This document shows positions 5,089 to 62,977 of a DNA stretch of 64,000 nt, piece by piece. Under the pieces are notes generated by a model. It saw only the letters and a program-made list of their open reading frames with translations, was not told where the DNA came from and did no database searches. The position numbers and the translations under genes are program-made. The stretch comes from Tubulanus polymorphus (lineage: Eukaryota > Animalia > Nemertea), in NCBI RefSeq assembly GCF_964204645.1, contig NC_134026.1, forward strand, positions 5,107,950 to 5,171,949, written 5' to 3'. Position 1 is the stretch's first letter. The number at the start of each line of letters is the position of its first letter.

Positions 5089-7163
5089 TCATGAAAAATC
5101 AGTAAATGAACACAAGATTATTCCATTGTTATCGTAAAACTCAAACATATCGTCACTACGCAAAATACGCATTTCATGTTCCCTTTCTACGGACATTGCA
5201 AACGTATCTGGACCATCTCCGCAGCCAGCATCGCTTGATATGGCGGGATACCCTGGATGAACCATCAATTCACAAGTGACTTGATTTTTATCACAACTCG
5301 CAAAGTTTTTAGTGGCCATCGACACAATATCATTCAGTTTTTTCTGAAGTCGTCCAACTGTCATGCAACTACCCAATGTCATCAATCCAGTGAAGTATTC
5401 TGCATGCCTAAAAATCAATGAGGACAAAAATAAGTATTTTCTTAAACATTTTTCTGAAAAGTAAGCTCTTTTAAGCACTTTGAACCCTATGATAAATAAA
5501 AGACCCATAATCACAATTCGATCATTAGTAAAAATGTACCTAAGCTTGAACTGATTGAAGATTTTACGACTAGCAGCAGCATTTTCGATACAAGCTTCGT
5601 TGAAAGCTAAACAAGACGGCGATACGAACCAATCACAATCGTGCAATCCAATTTCATACGGTAATCTTGTGTAGTTGACTCCGTAACTAGTAACTGCTTC
5701 AGCGAAAACCTGATTGACACCTGAAAATACAAACCAGTAAATAATACAGCTTCATTCTAGTATGACTACAGAAGCCCATATACCTGGTTCAGTACTCGGA
5801 ATTCGTCAGATCTGTCCAAAAATTAAAATATTTTCTAACTCAACACATCATGGATCATCAGCAGGATCTGAACCTGAAGGCACCAAGATGAACGGTACAG
5901 TCAAGTTGATTTGTTCATAAAATCAACACTTTTGGAGTAATAGAATATATCAATGATATCCATCTTTTTGGTACCAGCACTTTTTCAAGAAAGATATTTT
6001 AGTAAACCTTGCCTTACTTTGTCACGACCAACTCAGTCTTTTGACCACCTTGAACAACGAAGTCATTTTTCTGTATCTTCCGATCCTTAATTCCAACTTC
6101 GCTTACCTCGGACCAATTTTTTTGGTCCCAGTTTGTCCGTGTTTGGCAAGGTTTAATACATAGTAAGTGAAGTTATATATGATTACACTTAAAATTTCAA
6201 TGTACAATTTGCATACCTGGTAGAATATGTACATGTTGATGGCCGTCCACATGGACTGGACATACTCCAGTCAGTTTGATAAATAATTCGATTTGAGCAA
6301 CCATTTCACGTTTCAAATCTGGCATATTTATCGATCCCGACTCTAGTAGTGTTATGAATGACATTTTATCATGAAAGCTTCCCGTGTCATCAGTAAGGCT
6401 AGTTTGAAGGGTCGCTGGACAAATCGGCTTTCCTTCTGTTACATTCATATGCAATCCTGTTAATAAAATCATATCGAGTGAATAAATATTGGGGGTGGGT
6501 GGATCTACTGTTGTTCATTGTAGAAAATCTAAATTTAGCAGTGCTTTCACGGAGGAAAAACAGTTTAAGACAATGATATCATTTTGGCATTTGAGATTTT
6601 GGGGGAGCAAGCCTCAGTGGGAATCAAAAGCGTATCATGAAAATTTTGTTGAGACTAAAATTATTGGGGAGAGGCATATATGCCCCACCCTTGCCCGGCT
6701 GATGCCGCCCCTGGTAGTTTACCTAATTCAATAATACATGTATTTATTTTTCCATAAGGATTATCAAAATATCGATATAATGCGTCCACAATAACTAGTG
6801 GGTTTGAGCACTCTTTTTCAATTGAAAGGCAGGAGGAATACAATCGAAAGAGAAATGTTGTTGCCCCAAGATTCTACCTCAAGTTCCATATGAATGCTGG
6901 ACTGAGGAAACCGGAAATTCAAAGACATTGCACCTTACATTAGAACACACTTAAACATGTCCAGAACAATACATACCAAGTGGCAAATTGTATTTCTTAG
7001 CTTGAGCAACTGCAGATTCAGCAGCTTGACCGTTGACAAGTAATGATGCACTCGTAATCGACTTCTTATGCAGAAAACAATCAATGATCCCACGATTTCG
7101 TTCATCACAATATCCAAAATCATCTGCGTTTATCACAAATTTCATGAATTCCTTCGAAGCCAT
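5089..7163 (-). CDS. YDJC: YdjC-family carbohydrate deacetylase
   Basis: Exons 7163-6977, 6456-6217, 5720-5540, 5407-5089. Motifs INADDFG, GLHMNVTEG, HVDGHQHVH, ELMVHPGY and EREHE are the YdjC/ChbG catalytic signature. Confidence 0.93.
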
Positions 7164-7867
7164 TCTGGAAATTTACAAAGAATCACATGACTCGATTTTC
7201 AATCAGTAAGTGGGTCATAAAAAATTATCATGATCAAATTGACTACCAAATTTTTTGAAGTAGTTAGATACATAATCTATCCTCCCTAAACATGACTATA
7301 AAAATATAGTATAGTACGTTGAAGTCTAGCTCGAGGAAACATTTTCGTCCTTCACACTATTTTTTTTATTATAGTGGAATTCTCTATAAATCATTGTTAC
7401 AACAGATGTTGTTTTATCAATGGTTATAAGTTACAAACATTTATCTGGACTTCGTGATCCCATTTTCTAGTTATCTAGTACTTTAACAGTTGGTCCCAAC
7501 GAGGCCCTTAAACTGAAATACCAGCAAAAGTGGTATTCAAAACGATAAACATATATGTAAAATCTGGACTTCTTAAAATCCTGACGAGTAGTAGCCTAAA
7601 TATTGATCCCAATTAACGCAGGTGTTACCAATTCTTCCAGGGTTTGATCATTCAGACTTCAAGTGTGTTGTTCACAGGACATGACCAAAGACATTAGATT
7701 CTGAACAAATGAACTCATTCAAACTTCACGCCGACATAGCCTTAGATGAGGGTCTGAGGAAAGTTGTTCAAGGCTGAAGATTGCAGGTTATTATCATAAC
7801 TGAAAAACAAAAACTATTGCGAAAGAAACTTCCACGCTAAATAGACACTTCACCTGCTTACCTTTTC

Positions 7868-8146
7868 TTATGGATTATTGTTTTTCTGAAATGCATACGT
7901 GTGATCGAAGATGCACTTTTTTGTTTTTCCGGCAATGTTCAAAGTACGATAGATCTTCTTGATTACGCGAATGTAACTATGATCTTGAAGTAACGCACGG
8001 ATGTGGACGATATCGGACATGTTATCCGTCTGGTCGGCTAATACACTGTACGAATGTTCCACTTCGCAGATACTGCTGCGATCGACTTCAGCGCTGACCG
8101 GCACCGTCGAAAAATAGTTATGTTCCTTGAGGCAGTCAGTGCTCAT
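7868..8146 (-). CDS. Uncharacterised 92-aa microprotein with four [D/E]HxY HCF-1-binding motifs
   Basis: ATG with A at -3 and an in-frame TGA just upstream. Lies in a splice-bounded exon (acceptor ttctag at 8160, donor AAG|gtaagc at 7861). Motifs EHNY, EHSY, DHSY, DHTY. Confidence 0.6.
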   Translation of the reverse strand: MSTDCLKEHNYFSTVPVSAEVDRSSICEVEHSYSVLADQTDNMSDIVHIRALLQDHSYIRVIKKIYRTLNIAGKTKKCIFDHTYAFQKNNNP

Positions 8147-8869
8147 TCTTCAATCATTTCTAGAACTATAATAACTAGTTAAGCAATCTTGTTTGTCTTC
8201 TCTTCCTTGTCCGACTGACCCTGCTGAAATGAATAAAGGTTGAAAATAAAGGTTGCCCAAATTGAGAGAACCAAGTTAGATGGAATCATCTGTCTAAAAA
8301 TAGTGCCTTTTAGATTGATCAAAACAACAAAATAGCCTACATTAACTCCTCTGTGAGCTATAAACATCAAAATATTTTGTTGTTTTGATCAACTGTAAAC
8401 CACACACAGCTAGTTAGCTTAGGCTAAATCAATTAAATAATCAACGTTACTTGACAACGATGAACGAGTCTCACCTGGCCTCACAGCCTAGGGCCTGAGC
8501 TTATAAATATATTTTTCTTAAAATCCTACGGGTATTTAAGAGTCTACATAAGCGTGTGTTAATCGCTCAGAAATTTACTTGACACATAGGCTTATGCAGC
8601 ACACTGCGCAGATAAGGTCGCATCGTGTCAATCAATCCAAGTCTTGCAAACGCACTTCGCCATCTGCTGGTAAATGAAATGGTGTTCGACTGAGAATTTG
8701 TATTGGCACTTAGTTTCTATTTTTGTTGTTGATGATATTCTATAATTTTGGCGATACTTGCATCATTTATCATGCGATAATTTAGAAAAAGGTCGTAAAA
8801 GTTTTTTTAATTTACTCAAAATGAATTGATTTTGTTCAGTGAACCGTATCGTACGGTGCTGCCACCCGG

Positions 8870-9000
8870 AAATAACGAGCGATTGCAGAACTGAAACGAT
8901 AAAGCGCTGGCTTCATAAACACTGAAACACTCTGACCCGCAGCATAGAACTCGGTACAGTACAGCTGTCTGTTTTGACGTACGTGTGTCTTATTTCGCAG
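8870..9000 (+). other. Probable non-coding first exon of rabphilin, divergent from the YdjC/microprotein unit
   Basis: Consensus donor CAG|gtaaga at 9000/9001; ETS CCGGAAA near 8866 and a CTCF-like motif at 8657-8670 upstream; no ATG in the exon. Start coordinate approximate. Confidence 0.5.
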
Positions 9001-12000
9001 GTAAGATACATTTTTTCAAGTGATGTGGTGCAGTCAGTCTTGCAGTATGTATACGTAGTGACATAGTCATAGTGACAAGTGTGTAGGCCTAGTGTTTGTT
9101 CAATGTTCATGTTGTTTGAAGTTTTACTTTTCACTCAAAGTCTCAGTCTCGACTAAAGTGGTGGTGTAAATTCATTCACTCCAAACAAATCAGGTGTTTG
9201 TTGAATAACTGACTATGACTCTGAGTCTGTCTTAAACAGATATTTCCTTCTAGTCTTCAAAACTTTGTAGGCCTAAATGCTTAGTAGTTTCGATCATGGT
9301 TTTAAATTGTGAATCTATAACTTTGAGTTTGGCAGATAAGTTTTTCAAAATTATTTCTTGTGTTAATCAGATTTTTAGCCTAATGCTTTTATACTTTTCT
9401 ATACTACCAGAACTTTCTGTGTTATGTCGTATTTTGTTAGAAAATTACGCTTAATTAGACTTAAATCATATAGGCTTAACACCATAATCTGTTTCACCAT
9501 GACAGGAGGACCCGTGGCGCTGCCTCACTATTATAGCATACAATAGGCCTATAAGGTATTCTATAGCCACCGCTCCACATTTAATGGAGATGTGCTCAAC
9601 ACAGTTTATGTTTTGACTTATCAAAAAGAGGCAGATAAAGTAAAAATGTTTCAATAGTTTTCGTAGGAATTTGATGATTTTAGATGTTATTGTTCAAGAA
9701 TTAGCCTAGATATTCCTACCGTCTTCCCATTACTATATTGAAATTTTAGATAGTAATTTATATAGTAAATTAAAACGGGCTTAAGTTAAGGATTTAATAG
9801 ATATAAAGGAATTATCTGAGGAATATGAATTTTCCATAATGCTAAGAACTAATGTAACTTAGGCCTATTTCAGTTCTAGAGTAGGCCTATAATTCCACCC
9901 AAGACTTGAGAGCACGCTGATAGACTGAATTTAGTGAACACTACTTATTCTATGATGCCAGTGTAGGCTTTGTGTCAGTCAAGGTTTTACGGTAAAAGAA
10001 CAATCAAACAATGTGTATGACAGCAGTTATTCGTGTATTTTTTCCGACAATCTGAATGAAACGGCTGAGTATTTTCGGTCGTCGCTGTCCTGGCATCTTA
10101 TCAGGCACTTATCGTTGATCACAATGATCACTTGTGCTTATCTTGTAATATCCAGTCATAAAGTGAATAACTCTCCATATGTTGCTATAGCAACCGAGGA
10201 AATTATGACGATTAAATTCCGTTCAGTTGTTGATAACGACCATTAATCTTGTCCCCTTACGATATATCGGATTCGATATTTCATCTCACCAATGATCCGG
10301 CCACCTGACGATAAATATGGGGCAGGTGATATTTTGCCTACGCGACCTTATACCTGTCAACGGTATTTTTCTCGTTCTGATTGGCTAATTTACACTGCGC
10401 GTGCGTACGCGACTTAGAAAATGCGAGTCAAGTGTGACGATTAGAGAAAATGAAAGCGGATGAAGCTGTAGGTGAACTCGGGCCAGAATATTGCTGGCAT
10501 AACATCTTTCCACTAGACCACTGAATGTTTTAACTACATAAAGTACACAACCTTACCCTAACCCTATCTACGGGTGTAAAACGGACCCTAGACCTAAACC
10601 TACCCCTCTAGGCCCTAACCGTATGGAAACTCTAACCCTTTTCATAGTAAAATGATTTTATTGTTATTATTATATCTTATCGTGTATAGATGTCAGGAAA
10701 ATTGCGTTTACTAAAATAATGCCCCATCGGCAAAATATCCATTATCTAATAGGCCTATCACATTTGAGCTATTCGATCGCGTCTGTTGATCGCAGATGCC
10801 TGTCGAAAGTTTTGGCGATAACCATTTTCGTCGATCAGAAAGGATGTACAAAATTCGGGATGTAGTTCAGTTCATATTTAGTATCCATAGCAACGATATC
10901 GAGTCGCGATGATAATCCAGGTGAACTTATGAGAACAATGAGCGTGACCTCGTAAGACACAACGACACCGACGATGAAACGCTGATGAGAACTGGTCTGA
11001 CGTGCGCTCGCTAATGGCTTTCACAATTCATTATTAATTCTGGTTGCTGATTCAGTTAACAACTCAGTTGATAAACACTAAGGTTTGGATTAATGAATTT
11101 TATTAGCAGTGAAATTGCCTTCCTTTATGCGAGTCTTTGCTGTGGGCTTTAAGGCCTATACAAGCATCATACTTTTGTCATTCCCCCTACCACCGAGTAT
11201 TGCATGTTTCAGTGAACATTAGTTGATGCAGTTTGGGCGTGCAAAGTTTTTAGTAGGTTAGGTATTTGAAATATTGAAAATGAGTTACAAACTCAGAAAT
11301 TTTTCAATCAATAAAGAGCAATATCTTAATTCACTGTTTTTCATTTGCTATCGAAATGTGGGATCAGAATTGCTGGAGCCATTTTAACTCCCCAGTCAGT
11401 CTCACTTGCGCTGGAGTTTAGATAACACCTCGAATATATTAAATCACCAATATGGCCTGATATACTACGTTAACACTTATCACTGGACCCAGCTGCTACA
11501 TTTCTCAATTTGATACGATGCTGGATCGTGCTTATTTGACTCTATGAACGCAGATCCAAGGCTCTAATTTCGATTCGGTTAAACATTTTCTCTTAGTAAG
11601 TTGATCATACACAGAGCTGGGTTTTTGGAAAAAATGTGGTTTCGAACTATTTGGTATGGTAATCATATGGAGATTTTGCTCAATTTGAATGCGATTTATT
11701 TGTTTTTGAACCGGTACTTCAAATTTCATACTGGCACACGTTGCCGTAATTGTTTTGTCGGTGTTTATATCGTTTTAGAAATGGAAAAAGTGTGAATTCT
11801 ATAGAATGTGAATCATGTGAAAATATCTGTTTACAAGGAGTGCACTCAGTACCAGCATATCCTCTCTTATCAGAATTAGTTTTTAGATAGCATTATTGGT
11901 AGAAATATAAGGGAACATTCACAGGGATCATTGTTTGTTTTATTTTTTTCGATCTATTCTGTCACGTTAATCAGCCGGAAATTAAGTTGCGCGCTGGTTC

Positions 12001-15794: not shown

Positions 15795-50111
<34,317 letters not shown>

Positions 50112-54192: not shown

Positions 54193-55541
54193 TCAGTAAT
54201 ATGGCACCCAGTTACTGCCATCAGCTGGCAAAAGTCCACCAGTAACCAACAGTATCACATCGACTATCCACCAAATACCAACTCCTCCTAGAGTCAATAA
54301 CTTTCCAACAGCAGTGCCTGAAATTGGACAAAATATATAAAACTAAGCTTAGCTCAGCTATGCTCAGAGACTGGTTTTTTTCTTATTCACACAAATACAA
54401 TCAGTTCAAGTTTTACCTGTGTGTCCTAAGCAAAACCTGTCCATTCCAAGAAATCCCAGTAACACTGAGTAGATGAGTGTTGTGACGAAATAATGACCAC
54501 TGTACCTGTATTACGATAAGAAAACATTCTTGAAAACATGTAGCCTGCAATGGATTTTACAATTCCGACTAATGCTTACTTGATGCAAGGAAATCCATCC
54601 CTGAAAAAGGTTCGGTTTCCATAACATTCAATTCCGGGTAAAGCAGTACATTCTACTGAGGTTCTCTGCACGTCTTCCCATCTTTCACCACCCCACTACA
54701 AAAAAAAGATGCTTGTTTATGAGCTTAAATCTCTGAAAGGGTTTTTGTCGATCTGAATTCAAGACAATGTACAGGTGTAGGGAACAATTGGTAGAAACAA
54801 ATGTTAGTACCGGTCCATTGTTCCTAAACAACTGTTCCCCTACAGTTGAAGAGTAACCTGTACCTGTCTGGTATTCAGACTACTGTTCTAAATTCTAAGT
54901 TTACTGAATAAGAATCGACTTCATACTTTTGTACATCCATGACCAAGTTCTTCTTTGGCTGTTTGATTTCCAGACATATCAACAGGAGGCTCGCAACGTA
55001 TAAATTCTTTCGGCCTGAAAAGTAAAATACTAATTCAGAACTGGCCATAGAACTGGCTACATAGGCAAAAAACTCAAATACCATTTTTGTTTTTTGTTGG
55101 CTATTTCACATTTTTCAACAATTAGAACTAACAAAAGGTAGGCTTAAAAGTGAATTCAGGCCCTGGGCTGAGTGTTTCAAGGATTCAAGAGAAAGTTTAA
55201 CTCTTAAATCAATTCAATCACCTCATAAATTCAGCGGCTAAAGGGCTACTGAGCCCAATGAAATCCCTGTATTACTGCTAGTCTATCTTTAATTGATTTA
55301 GGAGTTAATAATTTTGAGAAACTGAGCCCTGGCAAGTGAGTGACCAGAACCCGGAAGTAAATTACACTTACAGAAATTTACACAGAACTAGCGCCGATTT
55401 AGGATCGTAAACGATCCCTGTCGACTCGTCAAAACATTCTTGCGACGAATCGCAATAGGAAGCGTCATCCAAGGAGGAAATCAGTCGAAGAATATTCAAA
55501 ACAAGGGCGAAATTTAGCATTAATCCCGAGATTTGTTCCAT
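54193..55541 (-). CDS. TM2D2: TM2 domain-containing protein 2 (missed by the ORF track)
   Basis: Exons 55541-55372, 55014-54927, 54695-54580, 54505-54417, 54317-54193 give [18 protein letters not shown]...[151 protein letters not shown], colinear with human TM2D2 including the DRF motif. Alternative ATG at 55520. Confidence 0.95.
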
Positions 55542-55591
55542 ATTCTATTTCCGGGTTTGCAGCGCCATCTGTGTATTGCCAAATCACCACT
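55542..55591. promoter_or_regulatory. Minimal bidirectional promoter between TM2D2 and STX18
   Basis: Only 50 nt between the divergent ATGs; contains TTCCGG (ETS) and GCGCCATCT (YY1/CTCF-like). Confidence 0.65.
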
Positions 55592-58424
55592 ATGGCAGAT
55601 ATAACGAACTTGTTTAAAGCCACTGTAAAGGCTGTCCGATCACGTCAGAAAGCTCAAAACAAACAGAAAGATGCGGAGAAAAACCACCAACAACATCATA
55701 TATTTCCGACAAGTAGACAAAAATCTGAATTCTCTCAGAAAGCCAAAGATCTGGTGAGTTTAACTCAAATAACAATCAACTTTATTCAAACATTTTGTGT
55801 AGCAGTTTCATAGGGAGTGGATATCTTGCCATTTTGGCATCACTCTAGTGAACACTATATTGCCAAAACTGAAAAATCTGATTTATTCAATTAGGGTTAG
55901 AAAATGGGTCCCTATAGTAAAACCGATTACCCACCTGTATATTTCAGGTTGGAAATATCAGCAAACTACGAGATTTTTTGATGGAACATCGAAAAAATTA
56001 TGTTAATGCTGGAAAGTAAGTTCAAGTAGTTACATACCTATTGGTGTTTCTGAATACCAGATAATCTTGCCAGTTGAACTACAGTTTAGATAAGCTTACT
56101 AGATTAACCTTCTATGGTGTTGAAACTATTAGTGCATGATCCATAAATACTGTATCCCTTGGTTCAACTGTGACAGATACAGTCAATTATTTTCCTTTAA
56201 GTCATTTGACAAATGAATCGAACCATATGACCGATGATGAACGGGATCGCATTGACTTGGATGCTCAAACCTTCATACAAACATGCCAGGAGACGATTCG
56301 AATCTTGCGAATGGAAGGTAAAGAGTTCAAGGGTTCAAGTTGTGGAGCTTCTTAATTTTTACTTCGATGCAATTTCTCTAATTCTGTATTTTCAGCATTT
56401 AACAACAAAATCTCGTCACAAATGAAAGAACACAGAGAAGCCATGTTTGATCTTATTCAAACATATTTGAAAGGTAAGAGATTGTTTCATAGTCAATATT
56501 GTACAGTTGTTTTGATGAGAAAATTCTGTGTCACGTATGAAAGAATTTTTCATCCAGATGAACTGTAGCATTCACTAAAATCTACTGCATTTCTTTTTTT
56601 CAGGCATCTGTAAAATATACAGCGAACAGAGAGCGATACGTGTGAAGCGCGCTGTTGATAAGAAGAGAATGTAAGACTGAAGATGCTCCTCCACTGAGGG
56701 GCAGATCCAGGATTTTCAAGGGGGGTTGCTCTGCTAGTCAATCAGACACCAAACTGCGAGTACTGAAAGCTAAAAGCAATGTAGAGGGGAGTTAGGGGGA
56801 CCCCTCAGAGAGTTTTGAAAAATTAAATCTCATTTTCTTGATCTAGTACCCAAAGTTTTTTAAGACCAGCCTTAAGATTTAAGACCACTTTTAGACTTTA
56901 GCCATGACTGTGCAACTAGCCCCTGCAGCTTATAACGTTTGCCTAATCACGTTTTTAAGTTGAAATGATAAACACTTTCAGATCTCGATTGGAGCCAGTT
57001 GAGAAGAAAGTACGTCACAGTCGGTCAGTTGAGCCGTCTGATTCATCTACATCGGTCGATTCAGATACAACGAATTCTAGTCTCAAAAACGTTGATCCGA
57101 TCAAAACTGCATCTCCATCTATAATCACTCCGCCGGTTAAAGAAAGACCTCCAGGTATAGAATCGTGTAATTGTTTTTAGAATTTCCGAATTCAATGATT
57201 GTGGAGGATTCGTGTTGATTTCTCTTTTCAGCGCCTAAGTTTATTCCGACAACATTTGGAGAAGAGGAAGATGAGTTATCACCTGAAGAAATCAATGCGG
57301 TAGGTTTATGATGCCCTTAGTTGAAAGGTAGTTCCAGTAGACTTGGTTTACCTCGAATCTCGAACCTGACAGACCAATAAATTCTTAGCAGTACGTTATT
57401 CAGGGGTTCCATCAGAGCTGGGATGGGTCAGTATGAATTGTGGTAAGAAGATTTATAATCTATTGTCCCAAGTATGTGATAGTCAGAGGCTGGAGGTTAA
57501 TGGAGTCTACTGTAGTAATAGTTCAGAGTCAGGAGGGAAGAATCTGAGGAAATTGTCGCTGACCCTTGGATTGAAATGTAGAACCTTTCCATAAAACTGG
57601 GGCTGTACTGTGTATTTATAAACAGGGTGGTCACTGACCTGGAAAACTCAGAGAAATCAGGGAAAACTCAAAAGGAATTTGATAGATTTAAGCAAAAACC
57701 TGGAAATTCAGATAATGCTGATGACCACGTGTTTCTTTATCAGTACGTGAATCAATGAAAAATTAATGAATTGTTACATTTTAGACGTAGAAACTTCTCT
57801 GATTCACTCAGGGAATTTTGAGTAATCACATGGAAATATTCAGGGGAAACTCAGGAGATTCGTAAATGGCCACCCTGATGAAGTTCTTAAGACAATGTAT
57901 AGATGTGTAATTTAATGATTCATTTATGCATGATTTTCAGTTTGAACAGGAGAATCAGCAAGTTTATCATGAAATGAACAGCATAGTTGATGAAGTCAGG
58001 TATAGTCTTTTAGATATGAATGCATCTTCACTATATTCCTAGATTTTCTTCGTGCCTAAATATCCGTTCTGCTTTTCCAGACAAATCGAAGGAAAAGTAG
58101 TGGAAATATCGCGTTTGCAAGAAATATTCGCGGACAAGGTTTTGGAACAAGAAGGCGATATCAATCGAATTGCTGACACTGCTGTCGGAACTACAGAAAA
58201 CATCAAAGAAGGAAATGAAGAAATCCGTGAGGTATTAACAACCAACCAATATGTGGCTTTAAAGTTGAGAGATTCTGTATCTGCTCGGGCTGGTTTCATA
58301 GATTAGGTTTTTATTTTTCTCGTTTCAGGCTATGAAAAACAACGCCAGCTTCCGAGTTTGGATTTTGTTCTTTCTCGTAGTGCTATCATTCACTTTGTTG
58401 TTTTTGGACTGGTACAATGGTTAA
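55592..58424 (+). CDS. STX18: Syntaxin-18 (ER Qa-SNARE)
   Basis: Exons 55592-55753, 55948-56015, 56202-56317, 56396-56473, 56604-56670, 56982-57154, 57232-57299, 57941-57999, 58081-58231, 58329-58424. [113 protein letters not shown] (tail anchor). Confidence 0.96.
57623..57877. mobile_element. Family D MITE in an STX18 intron
   Basis: CAGGGTGGTCA ... TGGCCACCCTG TIRs; flanks ATAAA / ATGAA. Confidence 0.8.
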
Positions 58425-60396: not shown

Positions 60397-62022
60397 TTAG
60401 TTAAACATTTCATTACACCGTAAATGACGAGAGTGGATGGAACCAAGACCCGCGCGTGGAACCTTTTCCGTTCGAAACAAATCTTCTCTAATATTCTGCA
60501 AATCCATCAAATGCTGATTATCCGCGGTTGTTTCCGAAATGGCCCATTCAGCAAGCGGTTCGTGGTTTTCGTAAACGATACTGTAACGATCGTATTCCGG
60601 CCAATTGTAATCGTAATCCGCGTCAACTTGGTTATCCAGCACTACGTGGTCATCCTCAAGAAAACTCTCATCCTGTTTTTTAGTAGAGGAATTTTCAAAA
60701 TGTATAGTTTTGAATTGACTCTGAACAGATGATGGTCTGATATTTCGACCACCATCTGCTGAGCGACGATCCACTGGAGCTCGTCCAACCCACGTAGTGA
60801 CATCCGGATCCAAGACTGCTGATTCGGGATGCTTGATGCTTTGACGAATCCACGACCCTGACGTAGTTGGTACGATCACCTGCCTAGAAGGTACATTATG
60901 TAACCCATCGGAATGATGTCCCCAGATCTGTGTTGGGGTAGGGCAACATGGTCGGTTCAAACCGGCCGTATATAGAATGGGATGAGTGAGCCCAAGGGCC
61001 GTGACCGGGCGCAGGGGTAACGCAGGAGTCAGTGGCTGTAAATTGACAGAATCAACAAAAGGACGAGTAATTCCGCTTGTGGCAGGACGGTGTACAACTG
61101 GCTCTCGAAACGTCTGTCGTTCTCTGAGGATAGCGAATTGAGATGCAATTGCCTCCTCGGTGGCCATCTCATTGAGATCCGCTGAGAGCAGAACGCTTGG
61201 AGATCTATTAGGGCGATTGGTTAGTTGTAGTTCGGTTGTGTAAAATTCTAGTGCATTGTTCTTAGCCTCTTGCCCCGTGGAGTAGCTCGTCGGTGAATGT
61301 TCAATTCTTCGACATGTTCCTTGCATCACGCTGTCCACTCCCCCAGCGCCAACGCTCGAGTTTTCCCCCACCCCGTTACTATCGAATGGATTCTGCGGTC
61401 GATGTGTCGGCAATGGGCTTTGTGGATCCCGCATTACGACTAGGGGTCCAATTTTATTTTCGGTCCCGTCGCCGTGGTAGGGTTGCAACGTGAATACTCC
61501 AGTTGGCGGTGATTCCCCTTGCTGTTGAAATAACGGTTCGGTTGCTCGGTAGCAACAAGTGGTGCGGCATTTCAGAATGACTTGTAAAATGCCCAAAGCA
61601 AAACACATCAAATATAAAAACGCGTTTAACGCCGCCAAAACGATGACAACATTTCTCGTCGAAATGTCGACATTGCAAAGGGAAGCTGTAGCGAAATCCT
61701 GTTGAGTACAGATGTGCATGTGCGTGGAAAGATCAACTGCCGAAACACCGATTGCCGCCAGGAGTAAAACGGCCGAAAAAGGCCACGAAATGATCCCGAA
61801 AACGACGAGTAAGACGCTACTCTTTTCTCCGCTTAGGACACCGAATATTCCCGTGATAACGGTCGTAATGGCTGACGGGAAAACGACCCAAGCAAAACTG
61901 ATGTAATTTCCGATAATGAATGAAGTCGTGTTCAAAAACAACGTCAAAACGCCGCCGATTATCTGAACAATCCCGTATCTGAAAATCAGTCTCCGTTGAT
62001 GATCACTCGCGTGGTATTTCAT
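60397..62022 (-). CDS. MS4A/CD20-like four-TM protein with a long disordered cytoplasmic tail (single coding exon, 541 aa)
   Basis: Longest ORF in the window. Four hydrophobic segments in the first ~150 aa (GIVQIIGGV; ITTVITGIFGVLS; FSAVLLLAAIGV; LNAFLYLMCFALGILQVI) followed by CRTTCC, like the CD20 family. 5' UTR intron supported by an acceptor at 62062 and a donor at 62358. Confidence 0.75.
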   Translation of the reverse strand: MKYHASDHQRRLIFRYGIVQIIGGVLTLFLNTTSFIIGNYISFAWVVFPSAITTVITGIFGVLSGEKSSVLLVVFGIISWPFSAVLLLAAIGVSAVDLSTHMHICTQQDFATASLCNVDISTRNVVIVLAALNAFLYLMCFALGILQVILKCRTTCCYRATEPLFQQQGESPPTGVFTLQPYHGDGTENKIGPLVVMRDPQSPLPTHRPQNPFDSNGVGENSSVGAGGVDSVMQGTCRRIEHSPTSYSTGQEAKNNALEFYTTELQLTNRPNRSPSVLLSADLNEMATEEAIASQFAILRERQTFREPVVHRPATSGITRPFVDSVNLQPLTPALPLRPVTALGLTHPILYTAGLNRPCCPTPTQIWGHHSDGLHNVPSRQVIVPTTSGSWIRQSIKHPESAVLDPDVTTWVGRAPVDRRSADGGRNIRPSSVQSQFKTIHFENSSTKKQDESFLEDDHVVLDNQVDADYDYNWPEYDRYSIVYENHEPLAEWAISETTADNQHLMDLQNIREDLFRTEKVPRAGLGSIHSRHLRCNEMFN

Positions 62023-62977
62023 CTTTTAAACTAAAACTACCACGATTAACATTGATTCCACCTGAATTGTTTAAACTATCTAAGAATCTATTTTAAACGA
62101 TGTAATCGATATCGATATTTAGGATGGAAAATGAAACGTTGTTCACGTTTCGAGTTCTTAGCTCCACAATTTTAAGTTTCTGGTAGTTTATTTCAATGGC
62201 TCAATTAGCGGTGAGTTAACAGTCAATCCTACAGTCAATCCTACTCACATGCGAAAACACAAGTTCGTTTGAAGAGTTGTAGAACGGTCTACGGATCTTA
62301 CTGAACGCATATAAATACATCCACATAGAGTGAAGTAATGAATGCTTTGTAATCTTACCGCTAAAGTTTTATCTAACAATATTCCTCTCTTCTTCGGATG
62401 TTTCTCCTGTATAGTGATTAATGTATATGCATTATAGATTATTATGATTTACCTCATTATGATTGGGACGTAAGCACTTTTGTGATATACAGCGTGAGAG
62501 AGTTTTGCTGTTTATTGTTCTCGAGAAACTAATTAATGTCATGACAATTATTAATTACCTCGACTGTTGGCAATCTTTACTACTGGACACACAAAAGTCA
62601 GACATGATCTACACGGTTTTGGGGCCGTTCTAATGTTTGTGTTTCTTAAATGAGTATTGAGGTTTTCTTAAACACGTAACTGGAAGCTGGAATTTTTGCA
62701 GTAATATTTTCTCGGATGTTCAGTACACCAATGAAGCTGGATCGTCCTCAGCTGAAAATATTATACCGTTCAGATCTTGAGAGTTCTGATTATGTTCTTT
62801 ATATTTGATAGCTGTTATCATAAAAGTTAAAAGCGACAACGATCGACGAAAAAGATGTGCTAAAAAAGTTGTCCAAAAACGCCGGGTACTTCGATTAAAT
62901 CGACACCAATTGAACCCTCACCGTACAGTGCTGCCACCATTTCAATATTTACATCGTACACGTGTTTGACAGAAATC

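Follow-up and report, generated by a model that had tools for sequence, protein, structure and literature searches.

What is a 92-aa ORF with four HCF-1-binding motifs (HBMs, [D/E]HxY) doing in the genome of a palaeonemertean, Tubulanus polymorphus, and could it encode a protein of its own? The ORF, here P0001, was found in a 64-kb window (the whole stretch of DNA that was analysed) and is made up as follows:

7868..8146, minus strand: 92-aa ORF (P0001) with four [D/E]HxY motifs; ATG at 8146-8144, TAA at 7870-7868
8114..8125, minus strand: motif 1, EHNY, residues 8-11, within KEHNYF
8048..8059, minus strand: motif 2, EHSY, residues 30-33, within VEHSYS
7973..7984, minus strand: motif 3, DHSY, residues 55-58, within QDHSYI, followed by a conserved RVIK
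7895..7906, minus strand: motif 4, DHTY, residues 81-84, within FDHTYA

The first-pass annotation had described four motifs spaced about 22-26 aa apart. Both statements hold on measurement, with the motif histidines at residues 9, 31, 56 and 82 (gaps of 22, 25 and 26 aa). All six frames of the window together contain eight [DE]HxY matches, half of them (4/8) inside P0001; the number expected per 92 aa is 0.0056, and the probability of four or more is approximately 4e-11. Three or more motifs were seen in none of 200,000 permutations of the P0001 sequence. The motifs had also been read as something other than a DNA tandem repeat, and this is confirmed: Tandem Repeats Finder returned no rows over 7000-9500, and a repeat-pair search of the DNA matched no P0001 motif to another. 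An in-frame TGA two codons 5' of the ATG closes the frame upstream, as described (the stop-to-stop frame is 8149-7868). The exact P0001 sequence is absent from a collection of 15 billion proteins. A decayed fifth motif 5' of the ATG was considered and found unsupported (shuffle P 0.17-0.32).

The minus-strand exons downstream of P0001 match Pfam YdjC (PF04794), and spliced contigs join them to the exon that holds the ORF. The transcript is composed of:

8475..8612, minus strand: exon 1, non-coding leader; its 5' end is the end of contig X5 record 14 rather than a mapped start
7862..8223, minus strand: exon 2, 362 nt, holding the entire P0001 ORF; GT-AG joints 8475/8223 and 7862/7164 (X4, X5)
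6976..7164, minus strand: exon 3, the first YDJC coding exon, ATG 7163 (spliced contigs, Pfam YdjC)
6215..6455, minus strand: YDJC exon 4 (spliced contigs, Pfam YdjC)
5539..5718, minus strand: YDJC exon 5 (spliced contigs, Pfam YdjC)
5089..5406, minus strand: YDJC exon 6, coding part; the 3' UTR extends past 4500

Splice joints were identified in two of the four sequencing runs aligned (X4 and X5, from two studies). X4 record 11 contains joints 8475/8223, 7862/7164 and 6976/6455, and X5 record 14 begins at 8612, crosses all five joints and reaches the 3' UTR. The intron ends read CT..AC on the plus strand, i.e., GT-AG on the minus strand. No splice joints occur in the X7 DNA reads, and X2 provided unspliced pieces only. 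From the spliced joints, we infer that the X4 and X5 contigs, which are short-read contigs rather than full-length reads, are of RNA origin. These contigs span the P0001 ORF, which thus appears to be transcribed. Exon 2 (8223-7862) extends 77 nt 5' of the ATG and 6 nt 3' of the stop; the ORF occupies most of it and can fairly be said, as it was, to fill a splice-bounded exon. No joint that skips exon 2 is present among the joints listed (contigs can lose rare isoforms). The earlier term "stand-alone" suits the protein but not the gene, as exon 2 is spliced to the first YDJC coding exon.

In the spliced RNA, 7 nt separate the P0001 stop from the YDJC ATG downstream at 7163, and the two ORFs are in different frames. 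The spacer in X5 (one contig) has one extra base, giving a stop-to-ATG gap of 7-8 nt, and contigs with joint 7862/7164 (X4, X5) bring the P0001 stop and the YDJC start within 13-14 nt of each other. The YDJC message with the P0001 ORF looks bicistronic, and both ORFs may be translated. Translation of the spliced exons from ATG 7896 gives, letter for letter, P0002, a carbohydrate deacetylase-like protein of T. polymorphus (XP_074641541-3). The database start of YDJC is a weak-context ATG located in exon 2; the reading from this ATG is in another frame than P0001 and overlaps the end of its ORF. ATG 7163, in contrast, has a strong context and coincides with the start of the Dreissena homologue. 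This suggests that the annotated start is wrong and that 7163 is likely the true one. The extra X5 spacer base would place the annotated 12-aa YDJC extension out of frame, which counts against a fixed read-through fusion. As all three database YDJC proteins begin in exon 2, the annotated transcripts probably carry at least its 3' end. The downstream cistron is otherwise an ordinary member of the YDJC/YdjC-like carbohydrate deacetylases (PF04794).

Differences among alleles point to constraint on the encoded protein. Four differences are listed in the P0001 ORF (7955, 8003, 8027 and 8045, each in both X5 and X7), and all four are synonymous third-position changes (P approximately 0.005 if neutral). 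The difference rates in X5 UTR are 9/589 and 5/138 bases, from which 3-8 replacements would be expected at 219 P0001 sites; the probability of finding none is 0.035-0.0004, rising to 0.003-0.15 if the one unlisted X5 difference were a replacement in the last P0001 codons (six differences were counted in the X5 exon-2 piece and five listed, the sixth being near an end of the piece). No indels are listed inside the ORF, and four to five occur in exon 1 and intron 1 (8307, 8346, 8489, 8577). Disruption of the ORF had been named as a result that would speak against a protein; the frame is instead kept in the other alleles, as it is in the homologues described below. The pattern is, in small numbers, that expected of purifying selection on the P0001 ORF. 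The X5 differences in the YDJC coding sequence (7022, 6354, 5097) are replacements in three of three cases (Fisher P 0.029), which is unusual for a conserved enzyme, with n=3 only.

A HMMER scan of 1.84 billion representative proteins of all lengths gave three matches at the cut-off of E 0.001 (P0008, P0007 and P0009). P0007 and P0009 were set aside, being long repeat proteins that lack the pattern of motifs. Five motifs are present in P0008 (105 aa, E 1.9e-5) and likewise in P0010 (121 aa), from the P0008 cluster, and P0011 (112 aa), from a profile search. The three are 79-87% identical to one another and 40-43% identical to P0001. Alignment scores of P0001 with the homologues are 125-131, versus 60 +/- 10 when the motifs are fixed and the linkers shuffled, and for each homologue none of 5000 linker shuffles equalled the real score. 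The anchor columns are invariant in 12 of 12 cases (D and E counted alike), compared with 21 of the 64 other ungapped columns. Judged by these alignments, the likeness of P0001 to its homologues is greater than the motifs alone would give. The homologues, which are likewise short ORFs, lie on Logan, JGI/IMG and ENA contigs measuring 961, 10,396 and 677 bases.

Other searches recovered no further relatives. A word-index search with P0001 among proteins of 50-161 aa returned no candidate, locus scans for P0001 in metagenomes gave no match, and three scans of viral contigs found no homologue locus. The DNA of the homologues was not recovered in the metagenome, prokaryote-genome or viral-contig scans. 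Two candidate loci were rejected as chance matches, one metagenomic (L001, query A1), where a bacterial ORF ends, and one from a prokaryote genome (L002) between stops.

HBMs are typical of THAP proteins, according to the available part of PMC10824691, and the word-index searches covered proteins of 50-212 aa only. The ORF might be what remains of the linker of a THAP or transposase gene, or part of a repeat. We consider such an origin very improbable. For P0001 and the three homologues Pfam returned no match of any kind, and hence no THAP zinc finger, coiled coil or transposase domain. PDB sequences also gave no match, and the ESM Atlas none that was usable for P0001 or P0008, in agreement with the earlier failure to recognise a family. 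The three matches among the 1.84 billion representatives include no THAP protein by sequence inspection, and the homologues are themselves short ORFs. Exon 1 is non-coding in the P0001 frame, and together with the upstream in-frame stop and the lack of a Pfam match this upholds the view that the ORF is not a piece of a THAP protein. A multi-copy transposon match, which the first-pass annotation had raised as a danger, has left no sign in the DNA reads: their depth over the ORF equals that of the flanks at 80% likeness, and X7 has no loose ends there. This is unlike the short multi-copy repeat at ~6070-6154 in a YDJC intron, where depth is raised and loose ends are many.

On the sequence evidence, the P0001 microprotein ORF is real, conserved, previously unannotated and arranged bicistronically with YDJC, and we predict that it is very probably translated. 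The product would be a mostly unstructured protein of 92 aa encoded in YDJC exon 2. Its annotation appears to have been missed because the ORF sits in the leader of another gene. Comparable mRNAs, in which a conserved microprotein ORF forms the first of two cistrons, are ASDURF-ASNSD1, MIURF-MIEF1, PYURF-PIGY and STREMI-SLC35A4, as described in the accessible text of PMC13303939. They share with this locus a spliced mRNA in which a conserved ORF of ~100 aa precedes a conserved enzyme gene; the proteins differ, and translation of both ORFs, predicted here, is shown there. YDJC is not mentioned in the main text of that paper; its supplements name it in two RNA-seq tables only, and the three files of ASDURF pairs do not include it. 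Literature searches, with most subscription papers outside their scope, returned nothing relevant on YDJC as a uORF or bicistronic gene, and no account of the P0001 ORF or of any HBM-only multi-motif protein.

The leader contains further short ORFs:

ATG 8587, minus strand: upstream ORF of 6 aa, in exon 1
ATG 8549, minus strand: upstream ORF of 1 aa, in exon 1
8143..8157, minus strand: upstream ORF of 4 aa, whose TGA overlaps the P0001 ATG

With six upstream AUGs ahead of the YDJC start, YDJC would have to be made by reinitiation, by leaky scanning past all six, or from an unseen shorter isoform. These AUGs, the stop-start overlap at 8146 and the gap of 7-8 nt between the P0001 stop and the YDJC ATG would also fit an ORF that acts mainly in cis, setting the translation of YDJC, with a peptide that is unstable or of secondary importance. 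As the main function this is improbable, for it leaves the four rare motifs, the synonymous-only alleles and the 40-43% protein homology unexplained. A cis role and a protein role may coexist.

If P0001 is a protein, the quality of its motifs bears on what it binds. In a display screen, 66 of 347 human [D/E]HxY peptides bound HCF1; according to the available text, binders favour a small x, an uncharged residue at Y+1 and no Pro at Y+2, with Q, L and W at Y+1 disfavoured in some contexts and a hydrophobic residue at H-4 frequent (bioRxiv 10.64898/2026.03.19.712392). We coded the residue sets from the text of that paper, rather than from its scoring matrix. The [D/E]HxY core is present four times in P0001 and five times in each of the three homologues, and in all 19 motifs x is small, Y+1 is uncharged (and not Q, L or W) and Y+2 is not Pro. 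From composition, about 0.21-0.22 per motif would be expected to pass these three rules; the 19 motifs represent five positions in two lineages and are not independent, and a fair P is ~0.002 for four. A hydrophobic H-4 is found in all four P0001 motifs only if Cys is counted, and in 5 of the 15 homologue motifs. Possession of an HBM does not guarantee binding: THAP5 has one yet is reported as a non-binder (PMC10824691, in the part available). Given translation, the motifs and their flanks make HCF-1 or HCF-2 the probable partner, and we hold this with good confidence.

Most [D/E]HxY peptides failed to bind HCF1 in the available account of the screen, and Cys occurs four residues before the His in 3 of 4 P0001 motifs. 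These observations would suit motifs that serve another partner, either a different beta-propeller or a metal site formed by His and Cys. The Cys is, however, missing from all 15 homologue motifs, and a Cys-x3-His metal site was rejected, as it is not conserved. That all 19 motifs satisfy the x, Y+1 and Y+2 rules also argues against a different partner, which we regard as unlikely.

HCF-1 has one Kelch pocket, and it is a hub protein in that this single pocket is common to many transcription factors. We predict that the four P0001 motifs dock in the pocket and that P0001, by virtue of high avidity, would displace transcription-factor and chromatin partners of HCF-1. Given a single pocket per HCF-1 and no effector domain in P0001, repeated motifs would most simply raise avidity and oust other partners. 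If binding occurs, competition is somewhat favoured over scaffolding, because P0001 lacks a DNA-binding, catalytic or other known domain and because HBM peptides on their own dislodge the partners of HCF-1 in human cells. In the accessible part of one study, 101 of 441 HCF1 interactions in such cells were lost to competition from a single HBM peptide (bioRxiv 10.64898/2026.03.13.711608). Taken as a whole, the proposal that P0001 is a conserved HBM-only microprotein in the YDJC mRNA and a predicted competitor for the HCF-1 Kelch pocket is one that we weigh evenly for and against.

The main rival to competition is a scaffold, in which the motifs engage several molecules of HCF-1 simultaneously and gather HCF-1/OGT complexes into clusters, while the conserved stretch at motif 3 recruits another protein. 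In each of the four proteins the motifs are spaced 18-28 aa apart, and the linker residues N42, D45, I46, R50 and R60-K63 are invariant. AlphaFold2 predicted no fold with confidence (mean pLDDT 52 and 53, from alignments of 3-4 rows), and both models place a weak helix across this conserved stretch at motif 3. The models are of low confidence, however, and motif number (four in P0001, five in the homologues) and the length of the last linker (by up to 10 aa) vary, which fits avidity better than a fixed geometry. We therefore consider a scaffold possible and rather less probable than competition. The helix at motif 3 in the weak models may not suit binding in an extended form.

Competition by P0001 would differ from the action of most known HBM proteins. 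VP16/UL48, CREB3/Luman, the THAP family, KANSL3, DIDO1 and SETD1A share with P0001 the [D/E]HxY core, the small x and the uncharged Y+1, and the P0001 motifs may, like theirs, lie in an unstructured region. Those proteins are large, and their motif serves to bring HCF-1 to a domain that binds DNA or has catalytic activity; P0001 and its homologues instead have four to five motifs in ~100 aa and no other recognised domain. The nearest functional analogue is HCFC1R1/HPIP, a small human regulator with one HBM and a gene of its own, which moves HCF-1 out of the nucleus; the likeness drawn here is one of described function. HPIP is mentioned as an HCF-1 export factor in the available part of PMC3258183, where the name is expanded differently.

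Engineered HBM peptides that block the HCF-1 pocket halt the growth of cancer cells, according to the available text of bioRxiv 10.64898/2026.03.13.711608. If the competitor reading is true, a natural protein consisting of little besides four to five motifs would serve as an endogenous dial for the pocket, and with P0001 the effect of motif number on competition could readily be tested. A broader view, which we consider doubtful, is that an HBM-only family exists throughout invertebrates in the YDJC leader as a multivalent inhibitor or clusterer of HCF-1/OGT, and that co-translation with the deacetylase ties HCF-1 availability to N-acetylglucosamine metabolism.

Several other features of the window were noted. 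Intron 1 of the YDJC transcript contains, at 8315-8392, an inverted repeat whose 20-nt arms match perfectly across a 38-nt spacer and which may be a small mobile element. On the plus strand a divergent gene begins no more than ~200 nt from exon 1; the first exon of this gene (8792-9001) is spliced to 15506 onward. The stretch 22197-22466 holds an exon whose weak FYVE_2 match suggests a gene of the rabphilin/Slp type. About 1.2 kb past the YDJC stop is a SNARE gene (3876-2348, minus strand) with a weak V-SNARE_C match, which from its N-terminus we take to be SNAP29-like. X4 record 9 (3747 nt) extends 2.6 kb past 4500, and the YDJC and SNAP29-like transcripts may thus join or overlap. A single open frame of 542 codons at 60397-62025 (minus strand) encodes hydrophobic segments at the N-terminus and a long tail of low complexity, and has no Pfam match. 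An N-terminal exon of Syntaxin-18 (PF10496, E 4e-8) was identified at 55403-55813 on the plus strand.
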